A DNA stretch of 47,882 nt from Candidatus Saccharimonadota bacterium (GCA_035329185.1 DAOLHH010000002.1:1-47882), one strand, 5' to 3'; positions 1-47,882 are shown, counted from the first letter of the stretch. Numbers and translations: made by a program. The notes: generated from the letters alone by a model not told the origin.

Positions 1-205
1 TAGCAAATGTATACAAAAATACTATATCTAGCGTAGCGGGTGAGTGCTACACTACTAAAGCTTAGAGGTACAAAAACCAAAAAGCATTAATAGTTACAGA
101 ACCGAAAGTAAGGTGTAATTCCTTCGCTGTGCCGCAACGGTTAAAGCCCGAAAGGTCAAAATTTCCCGAGCAGGAAGATGCACGTATAAAATATAGTTTT
201 TTACG

Positions 206-2585: not shown

Positions 2586-4249
2586 CTTCGAATATATGCA
2601 ATATGCTTGTCATGAAACTTCTTGTATTCAACTTTTTTGTATTTGTTTTTCTTAATGAAAGCGCTAATTTTCTCGCTTCCAATGTAGTGAGGTAGCATGA
2701 CGTAACTGGCCCCGAGCGTATACAATTCTGCTGCCTCAGTGATATTTTCAGCATGACAAATGACGACGCAAGATGGGTTTTCGCGGTTCATGAGCTGAAG
2801 GATATATGCATTAGTTGAAAAATCCGTAATCGAGACGATGATCATTTTTAACTTAGAAATATCTAGTTCTTCAAGGAGTTCGGCGTCATTAACGTCACCA
2901 TAGAGGAAGTCAATATTCTGACGTGTTAGGATGTCTATAACATCAGGGTCATAATCGATGACTAGCATGCGACTGTGCATGGTTTGGAATGTTTTAACGA
3001 ATTCACTTCCGCCCTTTTTATAACCAAACACGATGGTTTCGTAGGCTCGCTTCTGGGCATGTTCACTTCTAACTTTGCGTCGCTCAAACAGAGTGAGATA
3101 AGTTTGCAATGTCGTGTATATACCATCCGAGTAGATAATCATGTAGGAAGAAATCGCAATCGTTATCAATGCAACGAGGGTCATCAGAGAAACGGTGCTC
3201 TCTGAAATTTGCTGGTTATCGGCTCCAAGTAAGATAAATATCAATGAAAACTCACTAATCTGAGTCATCGAAATCCCGGCTTTAAAGCTCGTTTTTTTCG
3301 TATACCCCAATAGACCGAGAATCGTCATGACTATAATCGGGTTACCTACTAACACGAGGACAGAAAGAATGATTGCCTGTCCGATTACAGAGCTCACTGC
3401 CGATAAATCAAGCGAGGCGCCAAGTACGATAAAGAAAATAACGACAAAGAAATCACGGAGGGGGCGTAGTTTTGATGCAACATCTTGAGCATAATGCATA
3501 CCAGCGAGGCTAACCCCAGCGGCAAGTGCGCCAATTTCCAGCGAGAAACCTGCTGCTTTGAAGATTGAACCTACTCCAAAACCCCAAGAAAGGGTAAATA
3601 GGAAAAGCATTTCTTGTGATTTTGATAAAAAGTGAGACATAGGTTTTATGACGTATCGACTTGCCAACCATAAACAACCGATGAGCACTAAGGCTTTCCA
3701 GAGCAGGGTAATGAAATCGGACATCTCAAGACTTCCGCTAGAAGAGGCCGATGCAACGACGAGAGCAATCGTCGCAAGTACATCTTGAATTAACAAAAAT
3801 CCTATCGTAATTTTCCCGTAAAGTTTGTTCTGTTCTTTTTTATCGTTGAGTAACTTAAGCACAATGATGGTACTGCTAAATGACATTGCAGCCGCGATAT
3901 AGAGGCTACTTGTCATGTCAAAACTCAAACCACGAACAATGAGGAAAGCGACACTTGAAGTGGTGAGCACTTGAGCGAGTCCAGCTATGAGCGCAGTTTT
4001 TCCAACTTCTTTTACTGCTTTATAGTTCAAGCCTAGTCCGACTATGAATAAAAGAAGCGCTATACCAAATGTACTGAACGATTCGATAATTTCGGGTTCT
4101 TTTAGCATATTAAACACAGCAGGCCCAATAAGTATTCCGGTTACAATGTAAGCGATAATAATAGGTTGTTTGAATAGTCTTAAAACAAGCGCAACAAGTG
4201 CAGCGATGCCAAGAACGATGCTTAGTTCGGTGAAGAGATCATGCGACAT
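2555..4249 (-). CDS. CPA2-family monovalent cation:proton antiporter (Kef-type) with a C-terminal RCK/TrkA-N-like domain
   Basis: Polytopic N-terminal exchanger domain plus a Rossmann-like tail (VFGYKKGG..VIDYDP..GDV). ATG 4249 is preceded by AGGGAAA; the track start at 4291 is also possible. Confidence 0.85.
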   Translation of the reverse strand: MSHDLFTELSIVLGIAALVALVLRLFKQPIIIAYIVTGILIGPAVFNMLKEPEIIESFSTFGIALLLFIVGLGLNYKAVKEVGKTALIAGLAQVLTTSSVAFLIVRGLSFDMTSSLYIAAAMSFSSTIIVLKLLNDKKEQNKLYGKITIGFLLIQDVLATIALVVASASSSGSLEMSDFITLLWKALVLIGCLWLASRYVIKPMSHFLSKSQEMLFLFTLSWGFGVGSIFKAAGFSLEIGALAAGVSLAGMHYAQDVASKLRPLRDFFVVIFFIVLGASLDLSAVSSVIGQAIILSVLVLVGNPIIVMTILGLLGYTKKTSFKAGISMTQISEFSLIFILLGADNQQISESTVSLMTLVALITIAISSYMIIYSDGIYTTLQTYLTLFERRKVRSEHAQKRAYETIVFGYKKGGSEFVKTFQTMHSRMLVIDYDPDVIDILTRQNIDFLYGDVNDAELLEELDISKLKMIIVSITDFSTNAYILQLMNRENPSCVVICHAENITEAAELYTLGASYVMLPHYIGSEKISAFIKKNKYKKVEYKKFHDKHIAYIRSHFDVETSNE

Positions 4250-4574
4250 GTTTATTTTCCCTACTAACAGATACAAGTGTACGAGAGTCATTGTTAAAAC
4301 ACAAGCGCTATTGACGCGGATTATATTGTTACGTTACTATAAAAGTACTTCTGTAAGTTGAGAGCATCCGTGTGTGCGAGCCGGATGTGCTTTACGGAAA
4401 GACAAAAACTATAATAAAAGAAAATGCGAGAGAAAGGCTGTTGTTCGCAACATGTCAGTGCAAATAGTAGTCGCACCGTCCCAGCTTGAGCGGATAGTTG
4501 TCACCGTACGACGTCCAAAATGGCAAGAATTTATCGCGTATTAGGGTAACGTGATGTAGTGAGTTTTGGGCGCA

Positions 4575-26025: not shown

Positions 26026-26101
26026 TGGTGGGGCTGGTTGGAATTGAACCAACGACCAATCGGTTATGAGCCGACTGCTCTAACCTCTGAGCTACAGCCC
26101 C
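26026..26101 (-). tRNA. tRNA with anticodon CAT (elongator Met or lysidine-modified Ile2), CCA encoded
   Basis: Hand-folded cloverleaf: GGGGCTG-TA-GCTC-AGAGGTTA-GAGC-A-GTCGG-CTCATAA-CCGAT-TGGTC-GTTGG-TTCAATT-CCAAC-CAGCCCC-A-CCA. Confidence 0.9.
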
Positions 26102-38825: not shown

Positions 38826-40049
38826 TTATTTATTACGTTCAACAAAAGTCAGCGCGTAGCCGATTTTACCTGCACGACCAGCACGACCTATGCGGTGCAC
38901 GTAATCATCATATGTCTGAGGAATAGAGAAGTTGACGACATGTGTAATATCTGCAACATCGATTCCACGAGCAGCCACATCGGTCGCAACAAGAATTTTA
39001 GTTTCGTTGCGTTTGAAGCTTTCAAGTGCGCGACGTCGCTGACCAAGATTCTTACCGCCGTGAATCGAGCCAGCAGAAAAACCACGTTCTACAAGTTCTT
39101 TGCTGAGCTTCTCGACACCACGCTGTGTTTCATCAAACACAATCGCCTTGGTGGTAGCTGGATTGATGAGCAGGTCATGTAGCTTATCGATTTTTTCATG
39201 CGAATGGTCATAGTGAATAACATCTTGATGGACATTATCACTCGCTGCACTAGCCTTGAGCGAAATACTGACTGGATTGCTCGTGAAACTCTCAATAAGT
39301 GTTCGAATCCGGGTATCCATGGTCGCAGAGAAAAATAGAGATTGATGAGGCAGTGTAACGGATTCGAGAATAAATCGTACATCTGGCAAGAAGCCCATAT
39401 CGAGCATACGGTCAACTTCATCAAGTGCAACGATAGTGACGCGGTTGAGCTTTAAGCTTCCACGTTTCAAGTGATCTTTAATACGTCCTGGTGTACCGAT
39501 AATGATACGCGGGTTACGTTGCAAGCTACGGAGCTGATAGCTCATGCTGGCGCCACCAATGAGTAAGACGCCAAATAAGTTACTGCCACGTGCCAAATCT
39601 TGCATTTCTTTTTCAATTTGCTGAGCGAGCTCGCGAGTCGGAGCCACAATAATTGTTGCAGCTTTTTGATCGGTGAGCAGCTTCTGTAGTATCGGTAATG
39701 CGAAAGCAGCCGTTTTTCCAGTCCCGGTACTTGCAAGACCAACAATATCCTTACCAGTGAGTGCAACGGGGATTGCTTGATCTTGGATTGGTGATGGGGT
39801 GATGTAGTTTTTCGCGATAAGATTACGTTGCAAAGTGTCAATAAGATTAAAATCGGCAAATGTGTGCATTGATTCGTACGGTTCTTCTTCTTTGAATGTT
39901 GCAACTTGAACGAAGCGGGCAGGGTCGATATATTGACCGGCTGGCCGTCGTGACGAGCGATTTGTGTTTGTGCGACGTTGCCCTGAACGGTTTCGTGCAT
40001 ATTTTTGCGCAGCTGAAGAGCCACGACTTGATTTATAAGAGTATCCCAT
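38826..40049 (-). CDS. DEAD-box ATP-dependent RNA helicase with an N-terminal R/S-rich tail; motif II reads DEVD
   Basis: Q motif (PSPIQ), motif I ASTGTGKTAAF, PTRELA, DEVD, SAT, VATDVAARGIDV, HRIGRAGRAG. Confidence 0.9.
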   Translation of the reverse strand: MGYSYKSSRGSSAAQKYARNRSGQRRTNTNRSSRRPAGQYIDPARFVQVATFKEEEPYESMHTFADFNLIDTLQRNLIAKNYITPSPIQDQAIPVALTGKDIVGLASTGTGKTAAFALPILQKLLTDQKAATIIVAPTRELAQQIEKEMQDLARGSNLFGVLLIGGASMSYQLRSLQRNPRIIIGTPGRIKDHLKRGSLKLNRVTIVALDEVDRMLDMGFLPDVRFILESVTLPHQSLFFSATMDTRIRTLIESFTSNPVSISLKASAASDNVHQDVIHYDHSHEKIDKLHDLLINPATTKAIVFDETQRGVEKLSKELVERGFSAGSIHGGKNLGQRRRALESFKRNETKILVATDVAARGIDVADITHVVNFSIPQTYDDYVHRIGRAGRAGKIGYALTFVERNK

Positions 40050-40243
40050 TAAAAAAGGATCCTTTCGATTTTAGGTTTTTACTCGTGATTGTCTATGTTG
40101 AAGACGAGTAAAAGTTTCTAAAACGACCCGGATCCAATAATGAACAATAAAAGAATATTAGCATAATAAATTTTAAATGTCAATAACAGAGCAATCAAGA
40201 AGTTAGTAGTTGCCTTGTGCTACTATCTTAAAAAGGACTTTCT

Positions 40244-41092
40244 ATGAATAAAAAAATAATCTTCAGCATCATTACGGTCGTAACTATCATCAGTGCATTT
40301 TATGTGTATAAAACCCAGGAAAACGTAGCAGATGAGTCAGTGACCATGCAGAAGCCTCTGTATGTTGCTATGGGTGATTCAGTCGTAGCCGGGATAGGGT
40401 TGGGCGCGGGAATACCTGGTACGTGTGGGCGCACAGACCAAGCCTACTCAAACAAGATTGCTGAAGTAAAAAACTATGAACTAAAAAATATCGCTTGCTC
40501 CGGCGCCACGATTGAGCGAGGTATCATCGGAGTACAAAAAGTCGGCGATAATATAGAGAAATCTCAACTCAAACAGCTCAAGGAAATACCAGAGCCAGAA
40601 CTCATCACTATTACAATTGGCGCGAACGATATAGGTTGGGTAGAATCGGTCGCTCGATGCATTACTGCGACGTGTGGTTCTGAAGCTGAAACTCAAACTG
40701 TTGCAGATTCGATTGCAAACGTACAAACGAATCTGTCAAAAGTATTTGGTGAATTATCTTCAATGTATAGTTCGGACGCGAAACCCAAAATAGTGGTTAC
40801 CAATTATTATCAGGTTATTCTGGAGTCAGAGGCAGAATGTCCGGCATTAACAGGAGTGAGCGATACCGAACTTGCGTGGATCAAAAGTCAAATACAATTG
40901 TTCAATGCGAGCATTGATGCAGTAGTTAAAGACTATGCTTTCATCACAGCGGTGCCTATCGATTTCAGTGGTCATGGTCAATGTAGTCAAGAGAGCTGGG
41001 TTCAGGGACTCACGGATAAAGCACCATTTCATCCGACTGTTCCAGGGCAACAGGCTATCGCAGACGCGGTTTTGGAAGTGTTTGAAAAGTAG
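40244..41092 (+). CDS. Secreted or membrane-anchored SGNH/GDSL-family hydrolase
   Basis: VAMGDSVVAG, ACSGAT, IGANDIG and a C-terminal FHPT. N-terminal hydrophobic anchor; AAGGA RBS. Confidence 0.75.
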   Translation: MNKKIIFSIITVVTIISAFYVYKTQENVADESVTMQKPLYVAMGDSVVAGIGLGAGIPGTCGRTDQAYSNKIAEVKNYELKNIACSGATIERGIIGVQKVGDNIEKSQLKQLKEIPEPELITITIGANDIGWVESVARCITATCGSEAETQTVADSIANVQTNLSKVFGELSSMYSSDAKPKIVVTNYYQVILESEAECPALTGVSDTELAWIKSQIQLFNASIDAVVKDYAFITAVPIDFSGHGQCSQESWVQGLTDKAPFHPTVPGQQAIADAVLEVFEK

Positions 41093-41144
41093 TGCCTGAA
41101 AAGATTTGCTTATTTCTTGGCTTCACTTATCAAACAGAATAGCT

Positions 41145-41732
41145 CTAAAAATTGAACGTGCGTACGAAAGTATCGATAGTGTCGGTATACTTCAGCTCTC
41201 CACCTTCACCTGCGTAGTAGGTCACGCCTTTTCCTGAGTTATTTTTAAATTCATAGGTAAGGTTAAGCCCTCCACCATAATCTCCAATACTCTTCACAAC
41301 CTTATCGCCATTGATGTCCAACTCTTCACAGGTGTAATCGCTAATCGGCTTACTTTTCTCAATGTTCTCTATTTCTGCTTCAATCAAGCAAGCAATCGTT
41401 TCGTCTGCAGGCTCTGCTCTTGTATAAATAAGCATGCTATTTGAGCGATCATCACAATCAACAGCTTTGTCATCGTCTGGATAAGCAAGCATCATCTTTG
41501 AGTCTATAGAGTCGCAGTTCATTTCACTCCAGCCGTCTGGTAGTGTGTATGCTGATTTTTTCTCCGCCACTTCTGTTTTCGTTGTATCGTTGTTTTGCGT
41601 TGCTTCGCTCTTTGAGCTAGTGTTTTCATCGTCTTGGTTCGCGACATACCAGCCTGCTGCCCCCACGACGGCAACTATAAGAAGGAGCACTAATATCCCT
41701 GTTAATCCGAATCCGTTTTGCTTCATTTTCAT
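41145..41732 (-). CDS. Membrane-anchored protein with a prepilin-like leader that lacks Glu5
   Basis: MKMKQNG/FGLTGILVLLLIV..., followed by a Cys-containing acidic ectodomain. Confidence 0.5.
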   Translation of the reverse strand: MKMKQNGFGLTGILVLLLIVAVVGAAGWYVANQDDENTSSKSEATQNNDTTKTEVAEKKSAYTLPDGWSEMNCDSIDSKMMLAYPDDDKAVDCDDRSNSMLIYTRAEPADETIACLIEAEIENIEKSKPISDYTCEELDINGDKVVKSIGDYGGGLNLTYEFKNNSGKGVTYYAGEGGELKYTDTIDTFVRTFNF

Positions 41733-41839
41733 CTCACCACCCTCACTTTAAAATATAAAAAACTGATTTCATAGTAGCAATAGTACTCTATAAGTCCAAT
41801 TATTTTTGTGAATCAAGGATTTGCTGAGTTACGATTTAG

Positions 41840-42532
41840 CTATTCTGAAATTCTTACAGAATTAATGATGTCATCAAATACTGGTTTGTATATATGATAA
41901 TCAATGCCAGATACGTTCTTTGCGGAGTAATAATCACCTTTGTACAGTGTCGTTTTTATAAGTACTCCATATTTTTTACCGAGAATACCCACCGTAAGTC
42001 GCTGTTCATTACTATCAGACCCAGTAGCACCATAGGCTGAATAATCAGCAATTTCATAAAATGCGGGCAAAGCGTTAATCTCATAGACAATATGCTCACT
42101 GTCGCCACCTCCTAATTCAAACAAAAAATCTTTAACCCAGTTGTATACGTCGGTATAGTTTTCTGCCTCAAAAGCATAGATGTCGATACTAAACTGATCA
42201 AAGTTTGTGTAGGTTTCACCTACTGGATTCAGTACGACGCAGTCCAATATATGAGCACTACTATATACATTTATGGTAGCCCCCTTCAACTTAGAACAAT
42301 CTTCCGCAACTTTAAAAGTGTCTGGTAGTTGAAACGAAATTTTCTCATCAAGAATAGTAAGAGTTTTTCCGTTTTGAATTCTGTTATTATCTTCTTGCTG
42401 AGTTGTTTGTAGCTCTTTATCGTATTCAATTTTCATTGTCACTATATTCCATGCCGCAACAGCCACTAGAGACAAAACTAGAACCACAAACAAAATTTCA
42501 AGCGTACCAAAGCCGGATTTAAGTTTTTTCAT
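41840..42532 (-). CDS. Type IV pilin-like (class III signal) protein
   Basis: MKKLKSG/FGTLEILFVVLVLSLVAV has Gly-1, Phe+1 and Glu+5. AGGGGGAA RBS. Confidence 0.55.
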   Translation of the reverse strand: MKKLKSGFGTLEILFVVLVLSLVAVAAWNIVTMKIEYDKELQTTQQEDNNRIQNGKTLTILDEKISFQLPDTFKVAEDCSKLKGATINVYSSAHILDCVVLNPVGETYTNFDQFSIDIYAFEAENYTDVYNWVKDFLFELGGGDSEHIVYEINALPAFYEIADYSAYGATGSDSNEQRLTVGILGKKYGVLIKTTLYKGDYYSAKNVSGIDYHIYKPVFDDIINSVRISE

Positions 42533-42670
42533 GAGTTAGTTCCCCCTAATAAACATAAGTATTGCATAGGTTTGGGGTAAATGCACTTTGTTTGGGGGTA
42601 TTGCTTGGTAGCGCAGTTAAACACGATTAGAGCATCATCCAAAGTGTCATACCTAGATGGTAGTAACTAT

Positions 42671-43054
42671 TTAATAATGAAGTAACGACCTAAGCCTACT
42701 TTTAAACGGGTGATTTAAGAAAATATGCAGATCAGAATCGGACTCGAGCAAATAGTCCACTACATGCCAGAATTCATTTATTTTTTCGTGCTTTAACCCT
42801 TCGGTTCGTGTTAATTTTTGTCCCGATAGCGAGTTTACGAATGAATTTGGCACATCTGTAAGCGTGCACGCAAGTTCTGATTGACCCACTACTTCACCAT
42901 ATCGGCAAGCGAAAGTTACATGGTCATTTTGGTCGTTTTCATCATCCCATGAACCTAAAATACAAGTAAAATAAACTTCTGGCTTGTTGTTGTGGCGGTG
43001 AGCTTCAAGAAAAGCGACTGTGAACGCCTCGCCCCTATCCAGAATAAACCTCAT
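42671..43054 (-). CDS. Hypothetical protein (127 aa), third gene of the divergent operon
   Basis: TGATGAATG junction with the upstream gene. No family recognised. Confidence 0.55.
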   Translation of the reverse strand: MRFILDRGEAFTVAFLEAHRHNNKPEVYFTCILGSWDDENDQNDHVTFACRYGEVVGQSELACTLTDVPNSFVNSLSGQKLTRTEGLKHEKINEFWHVVDYLLESDSDLHIFLNHPFKSRLRSLLHY

Positions 43055-43057
43055 TCA

Positions 43058-44041
43058 TCAAACTGTCATTAATTGATTGAATACCGCAACATTATCATCG
43101 AATAATTTCGCAAGATCTTGAGTTGGATTGCTTGCAACAAGTCTGCCATCAGCAACCCGAAGACCAGTTCTATGCCAGGCGCACTGGCTAGCGTAACTGT
43201 TAGTCAAAGTAAAACTACCTACAATCTGGCGCAATTCAGCAATCCTGCTCGGAGCTACTGGACCAGTAATAATAAAGTGAATCTGCCTTGTGAGTAGTCC
43301 TTTAAAAGCTCGCAATTCGTCGGCAAAAGTAGCCCAGTCCTTCGCTTTAAGTGTCTGTACATCCATTGCGATAATCTGAACGGCAACGTTTACATTCAAC
43401 CAATTAGCCCACATAACCAGGCTCTTTCGGCTGTACCAATAAATATGCGGAACAGTAGTTATACCCAGAGCTTGCATCTCTTCGTAGACAACTAGGCTAC
43501 GCTTCACATTAAATATCTTCTCCGGGTGGGGATGTATATCCCATATCGAGTAATTGATCGATGTCACCAGATCAAAACCTAATGCCGCTAATCGGCGTAA
43601 AACATTGCCTCGTTTTGGCCAGATATTCTCTATGAGTCGGTCTTTACCATAGGCAAGAAGTAATAGCTTCGTCTCTGCAGGCACACCCATACGCATATGC
43701 ACATCAGCTGGGGTCAAAAGTTTGTCACGCGACACGACCTCACCAAGATGAACACCAACCCAAGCAGGCCTAGTGTGGGCAAGTAGCTTACTGCTCCCCT
43801 TTTGAATCCCAGGCACATATACGGGCAGGCGTGGCAGTTGTTGTTCAACTGCCGTAACCGTATTAAGGTACGGCCCTTCAACCGATGCCATCTGAAACTG
43901 ATGATCTTCCGAATCTTCGGCAAGAGGCTGATATTCAACACTTGCCATCTCGTAGTTATTGCAATGACCATCTTCATCGTCAATAAAATCCATATATGGA
44001 CAAATCTCGCTTCGCACAGAGTCTAGCGTTAGCTGAGTCAT
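43058..44041 (-). CDS. Hypothetical protein (327 aa); the C-terminal ~230 aa resemble DUF4417 from memory, unverified
   Basis: ATGA overlap with the upstream gene. The segment LVTSINYSIWDIHPHPEKIFNVKRSLVVYEEMQALGITTVPHIYW resembles the DUF4417 core as I recall it. Acidic, Cys-containing N-terminus. Confidence 0.5.
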   Translation of the reverse strand: MTQLTLDSVRSEICPYMDFIDDEDGHCNNYEMASVEYQPLAEDSEDHQFQMASVEGPYLNTVTAVEQQLPRLPVYVPGIQKGSSKLLAHTRPAWVGVHLGEVVSRDKLLTPADVHMRMGVPAETKLLLLAYGKDRLIENIWPKRGNVLRRLAALGFDLVTSINYSIWDIHPHPEKIFNVKRSLVVYEEMQALGITTVPHIYWYSRKSLVMWANWLNVNVAVQIIAMDVQTLKAKDWATFADELRAFKGLLTRQIHFIITGPVAPSRIAELRQIVGSFTLTNSYASQCAWHRTGLRVADGRLVASNPTQDLAKLFDDNVAVFNQLMTV

Positions 44042-44439
44042 AGTTGACCCAGCCCTTGTACCGAAATTATCACGATACGTGTATCGGCACTGGTCACCAC
44101 GACTGAATCAATCGTTCCCTGGTAGACATATTTCTTGCGCATACAACGCAATATCTGAGTAACGTACTCGCCCTCGTACACGCCCAGGTGGGCACCATTA
44201 CCTGCCGTAATTATAAGTTCGCCCCTTATAGCACTAGGCATCAGGGTAATAGCTTGACCTGCATGGGCAGACATTGCACTAGCTCCATCGAGAACCACTT
44301 CTTCAGTGAAAGCGAATAAACAACCCGCCGCCATTTCTGGCGCCGGGCCCGAACCACCTCCAACTGCTACCGGATCACTACTGTACGACGGTTTGTGTCG
44401 CACCACCCCTGTTTGATTTGTACTACTACCTTTACCCAT
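44038..44439 (-). CDS. Hypothetical protein (133 aa), first gene of the divergent operon
   Basis: ATG 44439 lies 4 nt after GGAGGT (the track's TTG start at 44451 is inside the SD). Gly/Ser-rich N-terminus, then a beta-rich region. No family recognised. Confidence 0.55.
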   Translation of the reverse strand: MGKGSSTNQTGVVRHKPSYSSDPVAVGGGSGPAPEMAAGCLFAFTEEVVLDGASAMSAHAGQAITLMPSAIRGELIITAGNGAHLGVYEGEYVTQILRCMRKKYVYQGTIDSVVVTSADTRIVIISVQGLGQL

Positions 44440-44443
44440 TTTA

Positions 44444-44497
44444 ACCTCCAACGGTCAGTTATGTTATATTGGAGGTAGACGAAAACTCGTCGACCTC
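44444..44497 (-). promoter_or_regulatory. Alternative-hairpin translational control element (SD / anti-SD / anti-anti-SD)
   Basis: In the transcript, TTGGAGGT (44451-44444, contains the SD) is complementary to ACCTCCAA (44476-44469). That ACCTC is also the 3' arm of hairpin GAGGTCGACGA/TCGTCTACCTC (44497-44472). Confidence 0.55.
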
Positions 44498-44619
44498 AGA
44501 ATCGCTAGATTGCCTTGGCCTCTAAACTAAAGCAGCTAGCGATTTTTGTTTGCTGGGATTTGTGTCTGTGCTTGCGCCACTGTATTCCCTCACAGCCGGC
44601 TCTCAAGGAGTTACTACTG

Positions 44620-44648
44620 ATTATAAAGATTCAGATCAGTTCTGTCAA
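44620..44648 (-). promoter_or_regulatory. Consensus sigma70 promoter TTGACA-17 nt-TATAAT for the three-gene operon
   Basis: Plus strand shows tgtcaa at 44643-44648 and attata at 44620-44625, exactly 17 nt apart. Confidence 0.7.
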
Positions 44649-44740
44649 GATAATAATACACTAAAATTAAGCATAAGAGAAATAACTGTCATAAATGTTA
44701 AAAAATCTTTACATAAGTTATAAAAAATCAATAAAAACTA

Positions 44741-44769
44741 TTGACAGTTGCATAAAAAATTTATACACT
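44741..44769 (+). promoter_or_regulatory. Promoter TTGACA(44741-44746)-17 nt-TACACT(44764-44769) for the XRE-Panacea gene
   Basis: Read directly. AAAGGAG RBS at 44804-44810. Confidence 0.6.
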
Positions 44770-44814
44770 TGGATTATCAAATGAGTCTGGTGGAATTACA
44801 ACGAAAGGAGTCTT

Positions 44815-45507
44815 ATGATATCTGTTGCAGATAACATTCGTGAGCTACGGGAGGGAAAGGGCTTAAGCCAATCTGAGGTAGCTCAGATAATAAATCTAAG
44901 CAGGCCTACCTATAATGCTATTGAGACTGGTCGCCGTGAACCAACCATCAAAGAATTGAATGCGATTGCTGGCATCTTAGGAACAACTCTAGAGTCAATA
45001 CTATTTAATTCCCAGCAAACTGGCATTACTAACTCCAGATTAAATAAGTTCAAGCAGTTAATACTAAATTGCTTACAGTATGGTTCTGACCAGCATGATC
45101 AGCGAATTACTAAAACCAAATTAGCAAAGCTTGTTTATTTAGCTGACTTTGCACAGTTTCAACGTACAGGAGAGCCCATGACGGGGCTTAGTTATAGGGC
45201 TATTCAGCAAGGACCTGTTCCGGACGCATATTTCAGGATTATCGATGAGTTGTTTGAAAATGGATCAATCACTATTGAACAGCGTGGTACAGCGATGATG
45301 ATTCGTGCGAATGAATCTGCTCCTACTTCATCACTTTCGACAGGTGAACTCGATTTGATTAAAGAGGTTTGCGCAAAGTGGCAAGGTAAGTCAACTCAAG
45401 AAATTGTTGACTATACACATAATCAAGCTCCTTGGAAGGCTACAGAGGCAGGGGCTGTAATACCTTACGAGCTAATAACTCTTGAAAGTCCTGACAATAT
45501 CTTCTGA
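44815..45507 (+). CDS. XRE-family HTH fused to a DUF4065/Panacea (SocA/GepA-like) antitoxin-type domain
   Basis: HTH: IRELREGKGLSQSEVAQIINLSRPTYNAIETGRREPTIKEL. Panacea-like core: ITKTKLAKLVYLADFAQFQRTGEPMTGLSYRAIQQGPVPDAYF. Confidence 0.8.
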   Translation: MISVADNIRELREGKGLSQSEVAQIINLSRPTYNAIETGRREPTIKELNAIAGILGTTLESILFNSQQTGITNSRLNKFKQLILNCLQYGSDQHDQRITKTKLAKLVYLADFAQFQRTGEPMTGLSYRAIQQGPVPDAYFRIIDELFENGSITIEQRGTAMMIRANESAPTSSLSTGELDLIKEVCAKWQGKSTQEIVDYTHNQAPWKATEAGAVIPYELITLESPDNIF

Positions 45508-45707
45508 ACTGGTATTCTCCTTACTGTAAAATAGTTTAATATTTGACTAATCATTGTCTTAATACATTTAGTAAAGTTGGTTGGCTACAGCCTGCTATTC
45601 AGGAAGTCCATAGTTGCAAAGGCTGATATGCTAACACTTGCGACGGTCGTGCAAGGGAAAAGAGGTCGGACCTACGTAAGTATTACTTTGTGTCAGATAA
45701 TGATGTT

Positions 45708-45764
45708 GGCAGAACTCGACTATGAATGCTCACTCGGCAACGTGCTTTTCAAGCACGCTCGCTC
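45708..45764. repeat. Repeat element X, copy 1 (copy 2 at 46523-46581)
   Basis: Shared blocks ACTCGACTAT, ATGCTCACTCGGCAACGTGC and GCACGCTCG. The internal hairpin is GTGCTT-ttc-AAGCAC here and GTGCC-tag-GGCAC in copy 2. Confidence 0.7.
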
Positions 45765-45828
45765 AGCCCAAGGGGTATCGAATGATACCCAAGCAATGAT
45801 TCCTCAACATGCCACTGGCATGCCTCAG

Positions 45829-46410
45829 TTATCGAGAAAATAGTTCTTTTATCATCTCATAATCAGGACGCGCTACTTCACGCTCATCGTCAAAAGAAAT
45901 CTTATTATTCAGGTCTCTTTCGATTTTTTTTAAAACCCAATTTTTTAGCTCTTCCAAGCTTATAGTCTTGCCAAATGACCATGCCGCATAAATATAAAAA
46001 TCAGTCTGTAAATGTGCTAGCGAATCTGCTGTCGCAAGTATTAAACCTTCCTTGCTTTTAGGACGCTCGTCGCCATGACAACTGTGGTAGCGAATGGCAT
46101 CATCCACAACTAAGGCAATTTCTCCGTCAGTATAGCCAACCTCTAGCATCAGTTCCTTCGCAATAGCAAGACTCCTTTCTTCATGACCAGCGATTGCGCG
46201 CGCCATCTCGATATCCGCTATATCGTGCAATAAAGCTGCAATTTCACAAAGCTCTTCACTAGCACCGTACTTTTCAGCTAACTCATGAGCGCTCTTGGCT
46301 ACCAAAAGCACATGATTCTTGTATAACCAGTCGCTCCACTCGTCACGGTGAGGATTATTGCTTTGGTATAGTTCCTGAACTTTAGTGCGCACTAGCTCCA
46401 ATTTATTCAT
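45829..46410 (-). CDS. HD-domain metal-dependent phosphohydrolase
   Basis: H..(30)..LLHDIADIE...RYH..HG...D. ATG 46410 lies 6 nt after the extended -10 TGGTATGAT; the track's TTG start is 46449. Confidence 0.7.
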   Translation of the reverse strand: MNKLELVRTKVQELYQSNNPHRDEWSDWLYKNHVLLVAKSAHELAEKYGASEELCEIAALLHDIADIEMARAIAGHEERSLAIAKELMLEVGYTDGEIALVVDDAIRYHSCHGDERPKSKEGLILATADSLAHLQTDFYIYAAWSFGKTISLEELKNWVLKKIERDLNNKISFDDEREVARPDYEMIKELFSR

Positions 46411-46522
46411 GGCATAATCATACCACTTGTGTACTGGGTAAAATCCCAAGACACAAAAAATAGTTCCATTTCTGGAAGCATTTCTGATCTGGCAATCTGA
46501 ATTGATTGCGGGTCCGCCAGCT

Positions 46523-46581
46523 GGCGGAAGGACTCGACTATCTGATGCTCACTCGGCAACGTGCCTAGGGCACGCTCGTTC
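46523..46581. repeat. Repeat element X, copy 2, preceded by the 16-nt perfect palindrome TCCGCCAGCTGGCGGA (46513-46528)
   Basis: See copy 1; aligned by eye. Confidence 0.7.
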
Positions 46582-46585
46582 GGGT

Positions 46586-46659
46586 AGCGGGGGCACTCCA
46601 ACGCACGATGTTAGACTAGCTGGGAGCTATTCCAACATCTAACTAAATTCTGTACAAAT
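46586..46659. repeat. Repeat element Y, copy 1 (74 nt)
   Basis: Identical to 47654-47727 except one base (T at 46611, G at 47679). Weaker similarity continues for about 40 nt (ATTTGAC.AATT.CGAACC...GGCTCG.AGTC). Confidence 0.9.
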
Positions 46660-46768
46660 CAGTTGATTTGACTAATTTCGAACCTTTTTGGCTCGAGTCA
46701 TGACTTCTTGGTTGCTAAGGTAGTTTTAGAACAAACTATTAGCTGTGTTGAGCGGGTGGAAACTTGAA

Positions 46769-47443
46769 TTAATTTAGTTTCACTGACTTGGAGATAATTT
46801 CACTAAAGTTCTCAATAGCTTTTCTGTCGTATGTTGATTGCTTAGAACATTCGTTACCACTACAAACGTCTGGAAGTACTACTTTAACCATATTTACACC
46901 AGACACGAAGAGCAAAGTAGTAGCAGAAAACGGACCATCTCCAACGGTATAGTCGTAAACAACTACACCTGAGTCACTAGTCCTGCTGAATAAATCAAAC
47001 TCATCACCAACTTTTGTGCCGTCAGGGAATCGTCCAAGCTTTGTGATCGTCCAATTTTCATTCAATGTACTGTACGATATTGTCGGACCAAATCCACCTC
47101 CAAATTCGTATCCATCTGCACTGTGCGTAATCGCAGGGTGCCAGTTATCATTTAAATCATCAATGTTTTTCCATTCAGTAGGATATACAAAACTGAATTC
47201 ATCACCTTGATACAGTTCATAGCCATCAGGGGTATTCGCAATCTGATCCATGGTCTGCGGATTATCATTAGCTTGCACTTTGCTGTCATGCTGTGGGGTC
47301 TCCTTTTGTTGAGTCTCGACATCTTGATTCTGCGACCACACATAATAACCTGCAAACCCAAGTACAGGGACGATCAGTGCTATTAGCAACCCCTCTACTA
47401 ACGTAAATCCTTTTTGACCGTTCATTTGGTGCTTCTTGATCAT
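46769..47443 (-). CDS. Type IV pilin-like (class III signal) protein
   Basis: MIKKHQMNGQKG/FTLVEGLLIALIV has Gly-1, Phe+1 and Glu+5. The track's 62-aa N-terminal extension has no support. ATG 47425 is also possible. Confidence 0.6.
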   Translation of the reverse strand: MIKKHQMNGQKGFTLVEGLLIALIVPVLGFAGYYVWSQNQDVETQQKETPQHDSKVQANDNPQTMDQIANTPDGYELYQGDEFSFVYPTEWKNIDDLNDNWHPAITHSADGYEFGGGFGPTISYSTLNENWTITKLGRFPDGTKVGDEFDLFSRTSDSGVVVYDYTVGDGPFSATTLLFVSGVNMVKVVLPDVCSGNECSKQSTYDRKAIENFSEIISKSVKLN

Positions 47444-47653
47444 CTTATTGTATGTTAGCACAAACAAAGTAAGTCTCGAACCTGAATTACAGAGGTAGAA
47501 ATACGTAAACCAAAAAGAGATTGGCATGAAAGTTTGATTAATATCTGTAATTCTTACTTGGTAGCGTTGGCAGGAAATATGGTAATTTGACGGGCTTTCG
47601 CGTGAGCAAGCTCCCAAGGTCCCGTACAAATTAGCGAATCTGCGACCTTTTCA

Positions 47654-47727
47654 AGCGGGGGCACTCCAACGCACGATGGTAGACTAGCTGGGAGCTATTC
47701 CAACATCTAACTAAATTCTGTACAAAT
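47654..47727. repeat. Repeat element Y, copy 2 (74 nt)
   Basis: See copy 1. Confidence 0.9.
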
Positions 47728-47792
47728 ATGAAATTTGACAGAATTCGAACCTCCCGCTGTGCGGGACGGCTCGGAGTCGTGCACCAGATGCC

Positions 47793-47819
47793 AAAATAAA
47801 AAGCCCTCATCTAGAGGGC
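47793..47819 (-). terminator. Intrinsic terminator GCCCTC/GAGGGC plus a T-run, downstream of the tRNA
   Basis: Stem 47803-47808/47814-47819. On the minus strand it is followed by TTTTTATTTT. Confidence 0.7.
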
Positions 47820-47828
47820 GTCTTATTT

Positions 47829-47882
47829 TGGTAGCGGGGGCAGGACTCGAACCTGCGACCTTGTGGTTATGAGCCACACGAG
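47829..47882 (-). tRNA. tRNA with anticodon CAT, 3' part only (truncated by the window end), CCA encoded
   Basis: The reverse complement reads ..TGTGG-CTCATAA-CCACA-AGGTC-GCAGG-TTCGAGT-CCTGC-CCCCGCT-A-CCA. Confidence 0.85.

Follow-up and report, generated by a model that had tools for sequence, protein, structure and literature searches.

Among the systems described so far, symE/SymR of E. coli is probably the closest analogue of the leader system reported here. According to PMC1891008, symE/SymR comprises a cis-antisense RNA encoded opposite the 5' end of the mRNA for a toxin-like, nucleic-acid-targeting protein, and this antisense layer acts on top of a transcriptional repressor and of protein-level control. 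The locus analysed here lies in a window of 47,882 nt (the whole stretch of Candidatus Saccharimonadota DNA that was studied), and it is similar in that a cis-antisense RNA of ~75 nt is predicted opposite the leader, in addition to an XRE-Panacea repressor. SymR is reportedly of similar size, and it is said to overlap both the Shine-Dalgarno sequence (SD) and the start codon of symE and to block them directly. Unlike SymR, the antisense RNA predicted here halts before the anti-SD, and its effect would come from a change in the fold of the leader. The repressors also differ (XRE-Panacea here, LexA for symE), and the product does not have the AbrB/MazE fold of the symE product.

Antisense control by leader refolding is known from plasmid replication, where it takes the form of attenuation in pT181 and pIP501 and of sequestration of the rep SD in the case of pSK41 RNAI. 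The present leader resembles these systems in that pairing upstream of the SD would select between two mutually exclusive leader helices, but it is located on the chromosome or a mobile cassette of a CPR bacterium with no replication gene, it has no sense-side terminator, and it shares no sequence similarity with them. It is also like hok/sok-type mRNAs, since mutually exclusive folds would gate a harmful product and an antisense RNA (here a predicted one) targets the leader. In contrast to hok/sok, the locus encodes no small hydrophobic toxin peptide and shows neither a fold-back of the 3' end nor a processing step; a mok-like reading frame is also missing, because the leader contains no ATG. 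Type I toxins are small, hydrophobic peptides, usually of less than 60 aa, whereas the first gene of this operon encodes 133 aa with a HIRAN-like fold; the locus is therefore not a classical type I toxin-antitoxin system.

Two further systems are related to the regulator. In PMC8832971, fusion of an HTH to a Panacea domain is reported for 343 PanA sequences, and PanA-PanT pairs are recognised as co-directional neighbours no more than 100 nt apart. The regulator of the present locus is like PanA in having its HTH fused to a Panacea (DUF4065/SocA) domain. However, the two genes diverge from each other across a gap of 375 nt, instead of being bicistronic within 100 nt, and therefore do not form a canonical PanAT pair. 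The main text of PMC8832971 mentions neither DUF4417 nor HIRAN, and the part of it used here contains no RNA layer for PanA-PanT. With the CapH/CapP operons (bioRxiv 10.1101/2022.04.27.489752), the distant relatives of our locus share a divergent XRE HTH accompanied by an M78 peptidase, and the HTH in the window matches the PADLOC capH model at 1e-8. The window and its close relatives, unlike CapH/CapP, have no M78 peptidase, and hence do not represent a CapH/CapP unit; their HTH is fused to Panacea and a structured leader is present.

Table 1. Features of the locus; positions are counted along the window.
Feature	Position	Strand	Remarks
Third gene, 127-aa ORF	42671-43054	-	starts 4 nt after the DUF4417 stop; no Pfam match
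Gene 2, 327 aa, DUF4417, TGT-like barrel	43058-44041	-	Pfam and AF2 model
Gene 1, 133 aa, HIRAN-like fold	44038-44439	-	AF2 model
Operon mRNA 5' leader	44440-44613	-	174 nt; start predicted from the promoter
SD region UUGGAGGU	44444-44451	-	GGAGG at 44449-44445, 5 nt upstream of ATG 44439
Predicted antisense promoter	44441-44470	+	-35 TTAACC 44441-44446, TG 44462-44463, -10 TATATT 44465-44470
Anti-SD ACCUCCAA	44469-44476	-	perfect complement of the SD octamer
Hairpin P3	44472-44497	-	10 bp, one C/U mismatch; arms GAGGTCGACGA/TCGTCTACCTC
Predicted cis-antisense RNA, ~75 nt	44477-44551	+	hairpin GACGA-AAAC-UCGUC, single-stranded GACCUCAG, terminator
Hairpin P2, predicted antisense terminator stem	44500-44544	+	can also form in the sense leader
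U-run UUUGUUUGCU	44545-44554	+	directly after P2; equivalent in the sense RNA is the A-rich linker CAAACAAAAA
Hairpin P1, GCCGGCUGU-GAGGGAAU-ACAGUGGC	44600-44576	-	RNAalifold prediction
Mini-hairpin P0, CUC-loop-GAG	44610-44600	-	in the 5' part of the leader
Sense promoter, TTGACA-17-TATAAT	44620-44648	-	12/12 consensus positions; -35 at 44648-44643, -10 at 44625-44620
Divergent regulator, XRE HTH fused to SocA/Panacea, 230 aa	44815-45507	+	Pfam

The operon promoter and conservation of the leader

The first-pass annotation had placed a consensus promoter upstream of the operon, and TTGACA and TATAAT, separated by a 17-nt spacer, were indeed found there on the - strand. In a promoter scan of positions 40000-47882 this site (44648-44620) scored highest and was the sole 12/12 match; six close homologues preserve TTGACA at the -35 and the pattern nATAnT at the -10. 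In the homologue alignment, conservation sets in ~4-5 nt past the -10, which suggests that the sequence matters from approximately the transcription start onward. From this onset and from the position of the promoter, transcription would start at ~44613. The leader from there to 44440 has the annotated length of 174 nt and an ATG count of zero, as had been claimed. For gene 1, ATG 44439 is favoured over the alternative start TTG 44451: the family shares the N-terminus MG(K/R)G, and in an alignment of 49 family members M1 and G2 hardly vary (at least 90%). A search of Rfam 15 with both strands of 44380-44830 gave no match, either at the gathering thresholds or with E values of up to 10 allowed.

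The leader recurs in six other metagenomic loci. The resulting sample of ~7 sequences, 6 of them close relatives, comprises seven distinct loci (the window, L012, L001, L002 (=L006), L003 (=L004), L005 and L018), which share the architecture XRE-Panacea gene, 300-380 nt, 133-aa gene, DUF4417 gene. Sequence identities were compared among five close loci (the window, L001, L002, L003 and L005), where the leader is 75-89% identical and 4-fold degenerate sites, which are near saturation, are 21-55% identical. The corresponding values are 55-84% for coding DNA and 58% for the promoter segment (hexamers and spacer), and 83% for the P2 segment and 89% for the segment with P3 and the anti-SD. The leader thus appears to be under purifying selection, its identity exceeding that of both the 4-fold sites and the promoter segment.

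A covariance model spanning P2 to the ATG detected all seven XRE-Panacea loci, L018 at E ~0.002, and matched no XRE+M78 locus and no second copy within the window. The leader accompanies the XRE-Panacea regulator in 7/7 loci and occurs in 0/6 loci in which XRE is followed by a second gene (M78-type). Among these six distant loci, an M78 peptidase is encoded in L007 (=L008), L009, L010, L011 and L017; L016 differs, having an XRE HTH gene and a 103-aa gene with no Pfam match on record. The six loci have either short leaders or an extra first gene. In some loci of the XRE+M78 type this extra small gene lies between the promoter and the 130-aa gene, at the position that the leader occupies in the window: it encodes DUF3892 (93-94 aa) in L016 (984-1268) and L017 (1710-1991) and is an unannotated small ORF in L010 (about 3795-3990). 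Descent of the leader from a decayed DUF3892 gene was rejected, as tblastn gave no similarity (best E 0.35, in a tiny database).

In GTDB species representatives, the leader DNA pattern had 0 matches and a protein-alignment scan found no relatives, and metagenome contigs yielded only two extra loci, one of which duplicates L002. A protein scan of viral contigs found nothing. The P3/anti-SD DNA pattern matched viral contigs 32 times; the covariance model accepted none of these matches (best E 0.63), and they were therefore attributed to chance.

Competing helices around the SD

The SD octamer TTGGAGGT (44451-44444) pairs perfectly with ACCTCCAA (44476-44469) across 17 nt, just as annotated. When the upstream leader was shuffled 20,000 times with its dinucleotides preserved, 0.4% of the shuffles contained an 8-mer perfectly complementary to the SD octamer and 2% contained any 7-mer complement. 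The ACCUC within the anti-SD is at the same time the 3' arm of P3, the 5' arm of which (GAGGU) represents the anti-anti-SD; the earlier description of this upstream hairpin (10 bp, 44497-44472, with one C/U mismatch) was confirmed. Minimum-free-energy folding, which the first-pass annotation had proposed as a check, contained P3, as did the centroid fold, and RNAalifold recovered P1, P2 and P3 on the sense strand. In the sense RNA P2 is formed by ATCGCTAG/CTAGCGAT and extends to 9 bp (44544-44500).

The three-part layout of SD, anti-SD and anti-anti-SD is real, and the check in related loci showed that all three elements are kept in 7/7 of them. The GGAGG of the SD is invariant among the homologues, and so are 8/10 pairs of P3, one pair varying as U-A, U-G or A-U. 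L018 keeps P3 as GAGG-U-GACG/CGUC-U-CCUC despite its diverged surroundings, together with an anti-SD UCCUCC and an SD GGAGGA, which are complementary over 6 bp. The SD:anti-SD helix can form in 6/6 close loci (48/48 cells). Position 44476 can pair with both of its partners throughout, being A/G/U opposite U/U/A and opposite U/U/G, and with the base after GGAGG it would form A-U, G-U or U-G across the loci. Covariation, which had also been suggested as a check, was not significant for the SD:anti-SD helix, as 83/500 shuffles reached the observed value. The P2 stem is compensated in L018, where 12/15 pairs are changed on both sides and 0/500 shuffles reached the observed value; this result comes from the single lineage L018 and from an alignment fitted to the model.

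The two pairings from which conditional gating of translation had been proposed are mutually exclusive, and forcing the SD:anti-SD helix costs 0-4.2 kcal/mol; left to itself, however, the RNA would be 'on' according to the folding predictions. In 5/7 homologues the P3 (open SD) state accounts for at least 90% at equilibrium, and the SD:anti-SD helix is populated to at most 9% in 5/7. Since P3 wins at equilibrium, the SD would be open by default, and with the open state dominant in 5/7 homologues a trigger would be needed to open P3. In the open state, 44457-44453 pairs with 44446-44442 in a weak local hairpin, which covers the last two G of the GGAGG. In silico partition-function folding of the seven homologues from 10 to 45 C revealed no consistent trend of occupancy with temperature, and most of them retained the P3 state at all temperatures. 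The layout does resemble that of SD-sequestering thermometers, but given this lack of a consistent direction we regard an RNA thermometer, in which the SD:anti-SD helix melts or the balance between P3 and its alternative shifts with temperature, as very improbable. A riboswitch-type expression platform is present in the seven loci, the 8-bp SD:anti-SD helix competing with the outer stem of P3. Nevertheless, the analogies that had been drawn with riboswitches and thermometers fail, because the RNA is mostly open, its folding has no consistent temperature dependence and it contains no aptamer known to Rfam 15; a new class of aptamer in the leader is conceivable.

The low population of the SD:anti-SD helix in 5/7 homologues, its lack of significant covariation and the weak local hairpin that already covers part of the SD would all be compatible with a constitutive structural leader, in which hairpins stabilise the mRNA or fix a low rate of translation and the SD:anti-SD helix is rarely or never used. 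We consider such a leader unlikely. It has to be reconciled with a perfect 8-nt complement to the SD that only 0.4% of shuffles contain and that is kept in six loci, and as 6 bp in L018, and with a conservation of the leader that exceeds that of the coding sequence, beyond the needs of hairpin stability.

In its 5' part the leader contains P0 and P1 (44576-44610), both of which are missing from L018. P1 has the form CTGT-N8-ACAG, like the LexA box of E. coli, its loop carrying GAGGGAAU. A LexA-type operator was ruled out: its spacing would be fixed, whereas the homologues have 6 to 8 nt here, and a loop of such variable length fits an RNA hairpin. RNAalifold and minimum-free-energy folds joined the 5' CUCC over a long distance to the SD or to codons 3-6. 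This pairing was set aside, since GAGG/AAGG motifs abound in the region, different runs gave different partners, and the 5' part does not exist in L018.

A predicted transcript of the + strand

A model of the sense RNA alone leaves three features unexplained, namely the invariant loop between the anti-SD and the SD, the A-tract before P2 and the mismatches in P2, and all three would make sense when read on the + strand. The loop is unpaired in both states of the sense RNA; only its 3' half varies among the loci, the 5' half (AUAUAACAU) being invariant. On the + strand, an extended -10 (TGnTAnnnT) is found in place of the loop and is kept in 7/7 loci; the promoter scan lists the site 44441-44470 (+) with its TG extension. 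In the sense RNA this antisense promoter corresponds to the loop and the spacer between SD and ATG. In 7/7 loci, TGn and a -10-like hexamer sit 0-1 nt before GGAGG, the spacer varying and the -35 being weak (poor in L003, L012 and L018). The -10 reads TGT-TATATT in the window, TATAGT or TATTCT elsewhere, and TGC-TACTAT in L018. The invariant loop thus seems better explained as the extended -10 promoter of a + strand transcript, which is conserved at this place.

The third hairpin noted in the first-pass annotation, P2, is present where it was described, but it is better read as the intrinsic terminator of the predicted + strand transcript, because a U-run follows the stem on that strand only. 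The A-rich tract that precedes P2 in the sense RNA is a U-rich tract after the stem in the antisense RNA in 7/7 loci; in the sense direction the sequence after P2 is UCUGAGG, which lacks a U-run. In L001, L002, L003 and L005 the sense form of P2 contains two C-A or A-C mismatches, which become G-U pairs on the + strand, so that a contiguous 13-14-bp stem results. In these four loci P2 is 8-10 kcal/mol more stable on the + strand (-20 to -23.6 kcal/mol antisense versus -11.5 to -13.4 kcal/mol sense), and in the other three its stability is about equal on the two strands. The asymmetry of wobble pairs in favour of the antisense strand amounts to ~4 independent events versus 2.

The predicted antisense RNA folds with -27.1 kcal/mol, and RNAalifold gave the same architecture across the seven antisense sequences. 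Our preferred reading, which we hold tentatively and with slightly less than even confidence, is that the leader is a conserved post-transcriptional control region in which a cis-antisense RNA refolds the leader and closes the SD. A small RNA gene inside the leader would be transcribed on the + strand from near 44477 and would end at P2 and the U-run near 44551. The anti-SD could pair alternatively with the SD or with the GAGGU of P3. Every base of P2 and of the 5' arm, the loop and the inner 3' arm of P3 would have its complement in the antisense RNA, which would end one base short of the anti-SD. Pairing with the mRNA would strip away the anti-anti-SD, and the released anti-SD would close the SD and block translation of gene 1 and, via the ATGA overlap, that of gene 2. 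Cleavage of the duplex by RNase III or interference between the facing promoters might add to the effect, and the XRE-Panacea protein would provide transcriptional control on top, perhaps with control at the protein level.

When the segment complementary to the antisense RNA was masked, the probability that GGAGG is unpaired fell from 0.13-0.59 to 0.00-0.12 in 7/7 homologues. This result is partly built in, because removing the competitor lets the anti-SD pair, and it may be taken as a consistency check for the antisense mechanism, short of proof. The sequence itself shows that the leader is conserved, that two alternative pairings exist, that the energetics favour an open SD by default and that the + strand carries signals like those of a promoter and a terminator. 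The two promoters, their transcription starts and the terminator as such are predicted from it. We infer that the antisense RNA is expressed, that it pairs with the mRNA and affects its translation, and that the product is toxic. The conserved P0 and P1 (44610-44576) would fall outside the account that the antisense model gives.

A trans factor other than an antisense RNA could also toggle the sense RNA between the P3 and SD:anti-SD states. Candidates are a CsrA-like protein, the 133-aa product, the XRE-Panacea protein or a small ligand, and a protein would bind the 5' arm of P3 or loops that contain GGA/GAGG. In favour of such a switch, the three-part layout is conserved and little energy separates its two states. 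Loops or arms expose four GAGG-like motifs, the sense RNA folds into P1 and P2, and some G-U pairs form on the sense strand only. However, it leaves unexplained the invariant unpaired loop with its variable 3' half, the U-run beside P2 and the better fold of P2 on the antisense strand, and no known aptamer was found in Rfam at E up to 10. We therefore consider a switch that operates on the sense RNA only to be rather doubtful.

The conservation could alternatively reflect a function of the DNA, either as operators for XRE-Panacea or, on the + strand, as a second, attenuated XRE-Panacea promoter that gives no discrete small RNA. The whole divergent intergenic region is conserved, including its untranscribed parts (73% identity), HTH dimers bind inverted repeats, and the + strand promoter faces the XRE-Panacea gene, which lies 260 nt past the terminator. 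Yet the arms of P2 are 27 nt apart and in L018 change by compensation, without the sequence of a half-site being kept, and the P1 loop varies in length (6-8 nt). Conservation starts at the predicted sense start, the promoter segment being only 58% identical, and the U-run behind a hairpin speaks for termination. A function at the DNA level is, in our judgement, quite improbable.

If the antisense reading is confirmed, the leader would join a very small number of regulatory RNAs known from Saccharibacteria and other CPR bacteria, and it would provide a clear case of an antisense RNA that represses translation indirectly, through release of an internal anti-SD. The leader would represent a new RNA family of a regulatory kind that is already known; the effector module is uncharacterised and possibly more interesting.

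The protein-coding genes and their surroundings

Gene 1 had no match in Pfam or PADLOC, and clustering of 1.84 billion proteins at 50% gave 65 representatives of its 133-aa family. Its AF2 model (pLDDT 80) has HIRAN domains as top PDB matches (E ~2e-3, TM 0.45-0.57). Gene 2 scored 28.7 bits against Pfam DUF4417 (PF14386), the cut-off being 28.9; an identical protein is named DUF4417 by NCBI, and PF14386 is precomputed for 9/11 homologues. The top PDB matches of its AF2 model (pLDDT 85) are all tRNA-guanine transglycosylases (TGT; E 2e-6, TM ~0.5), a likeness at the level of the fold only. The two genes overlap by ATGA, which makes translational coupling plausible. The proposal that the whole operon is gated through coupling is thus plausible for genes 1 and 2, but it does not extend to the third gene, which is missing from every related locus for which downstream genes are listed and for that reason is probably outside the module.

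The regulator matches Pfam HTH_3 (1e-15) and SocA_Panacea (PF13274; 7.8e-20) in addition to PADLOC capH (1e-8). It has a promoter of its own, TTGACA-17-TACACT (44741-44769), the hexamers of which are conserved. The 375-nt gap separates it from gene 1 in divergent orientation, and the same layout is found in six related loci. Between the divergent promoters, an inverted repeat ATGTAA-N8-TTACAT (44690-44715) and a repeated TTATGC (44662-44675/44741-44755) are conserved; both are candidate operators for XRE-Panacea.

The pair of a HIRAN-like protein of ~130 aa and a TGT-like DUF4417 protein recurs across CPR (window, L007, L009, L011, L016, L017 and L018). It is always located beside a divergent XRE regulator, either M78-paired or Panacea-fused, and often adjoins restriction-modification genes (MmeI-type, Bpu10I, methylases, NspV). 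Because the flanking genes differ and often belong to restriction-modification systems, the module appears mobile and defence-island-like. In L016, a gene for a 533-aa fusion of a reverse transcriptase and a trypsin-like protease (RVT_1 + Trypsin; 2921-4522, - strand) adjoins the module and is likely another defence gene. The suggestion that the operon encodes a harmful product fits with HIRAN-like and TGT-like DUF4417 proteins encoded beside an antitoxin-type regulator with a Panacea domain.

The HIRAN-like/DUF4417 module is a candidate for an uncharacterised toxin or defence effector. Under its defence- or toxin-type regulators it could be a new toxin or anti-phage effector, one that may act on nucleic-acid bases. 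A more elaborate and rather speculative proposal, to which we assign a low probability, is that of a mobile three-gene CPR cassette with a TGT-like effector that exchanges or excises bases and a HIRAN-like partner, held by two locks, a repressor-Panacea protein and an SD-sparing antisense RNA, the RNA having replaced, in this lineage, the ImmA/CapP-type peptidase sensor of an ancestral form. Loci with XRE and an M78 peptidase and loci with XRE-Panacea and an RNA leader would offer a natural comparison of how the module is silenced.

Several other features were observed in the window. One tRNA gene is complete (26029-26101, -) and another (47832-47882, -) is cut by the window end; the latter lies ~2.3 kb from the module and may bear on the possibility of a cassette in a tRNA-integrated island. 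A partial match to the AdoCbl-II (cobalamin) riboswitch aptamer is found at 104-154 (+), with a score of 38.3 bits and an Rfam gathering score of 36.5 bits. Three ORFs on the - strand (41145-41732, 41840-42532 and 46769-47629) have no Pfam match and carry type IV pilin-like N-termini, in which G-F-T/G-L...E is followed by a hydrophobic helix.
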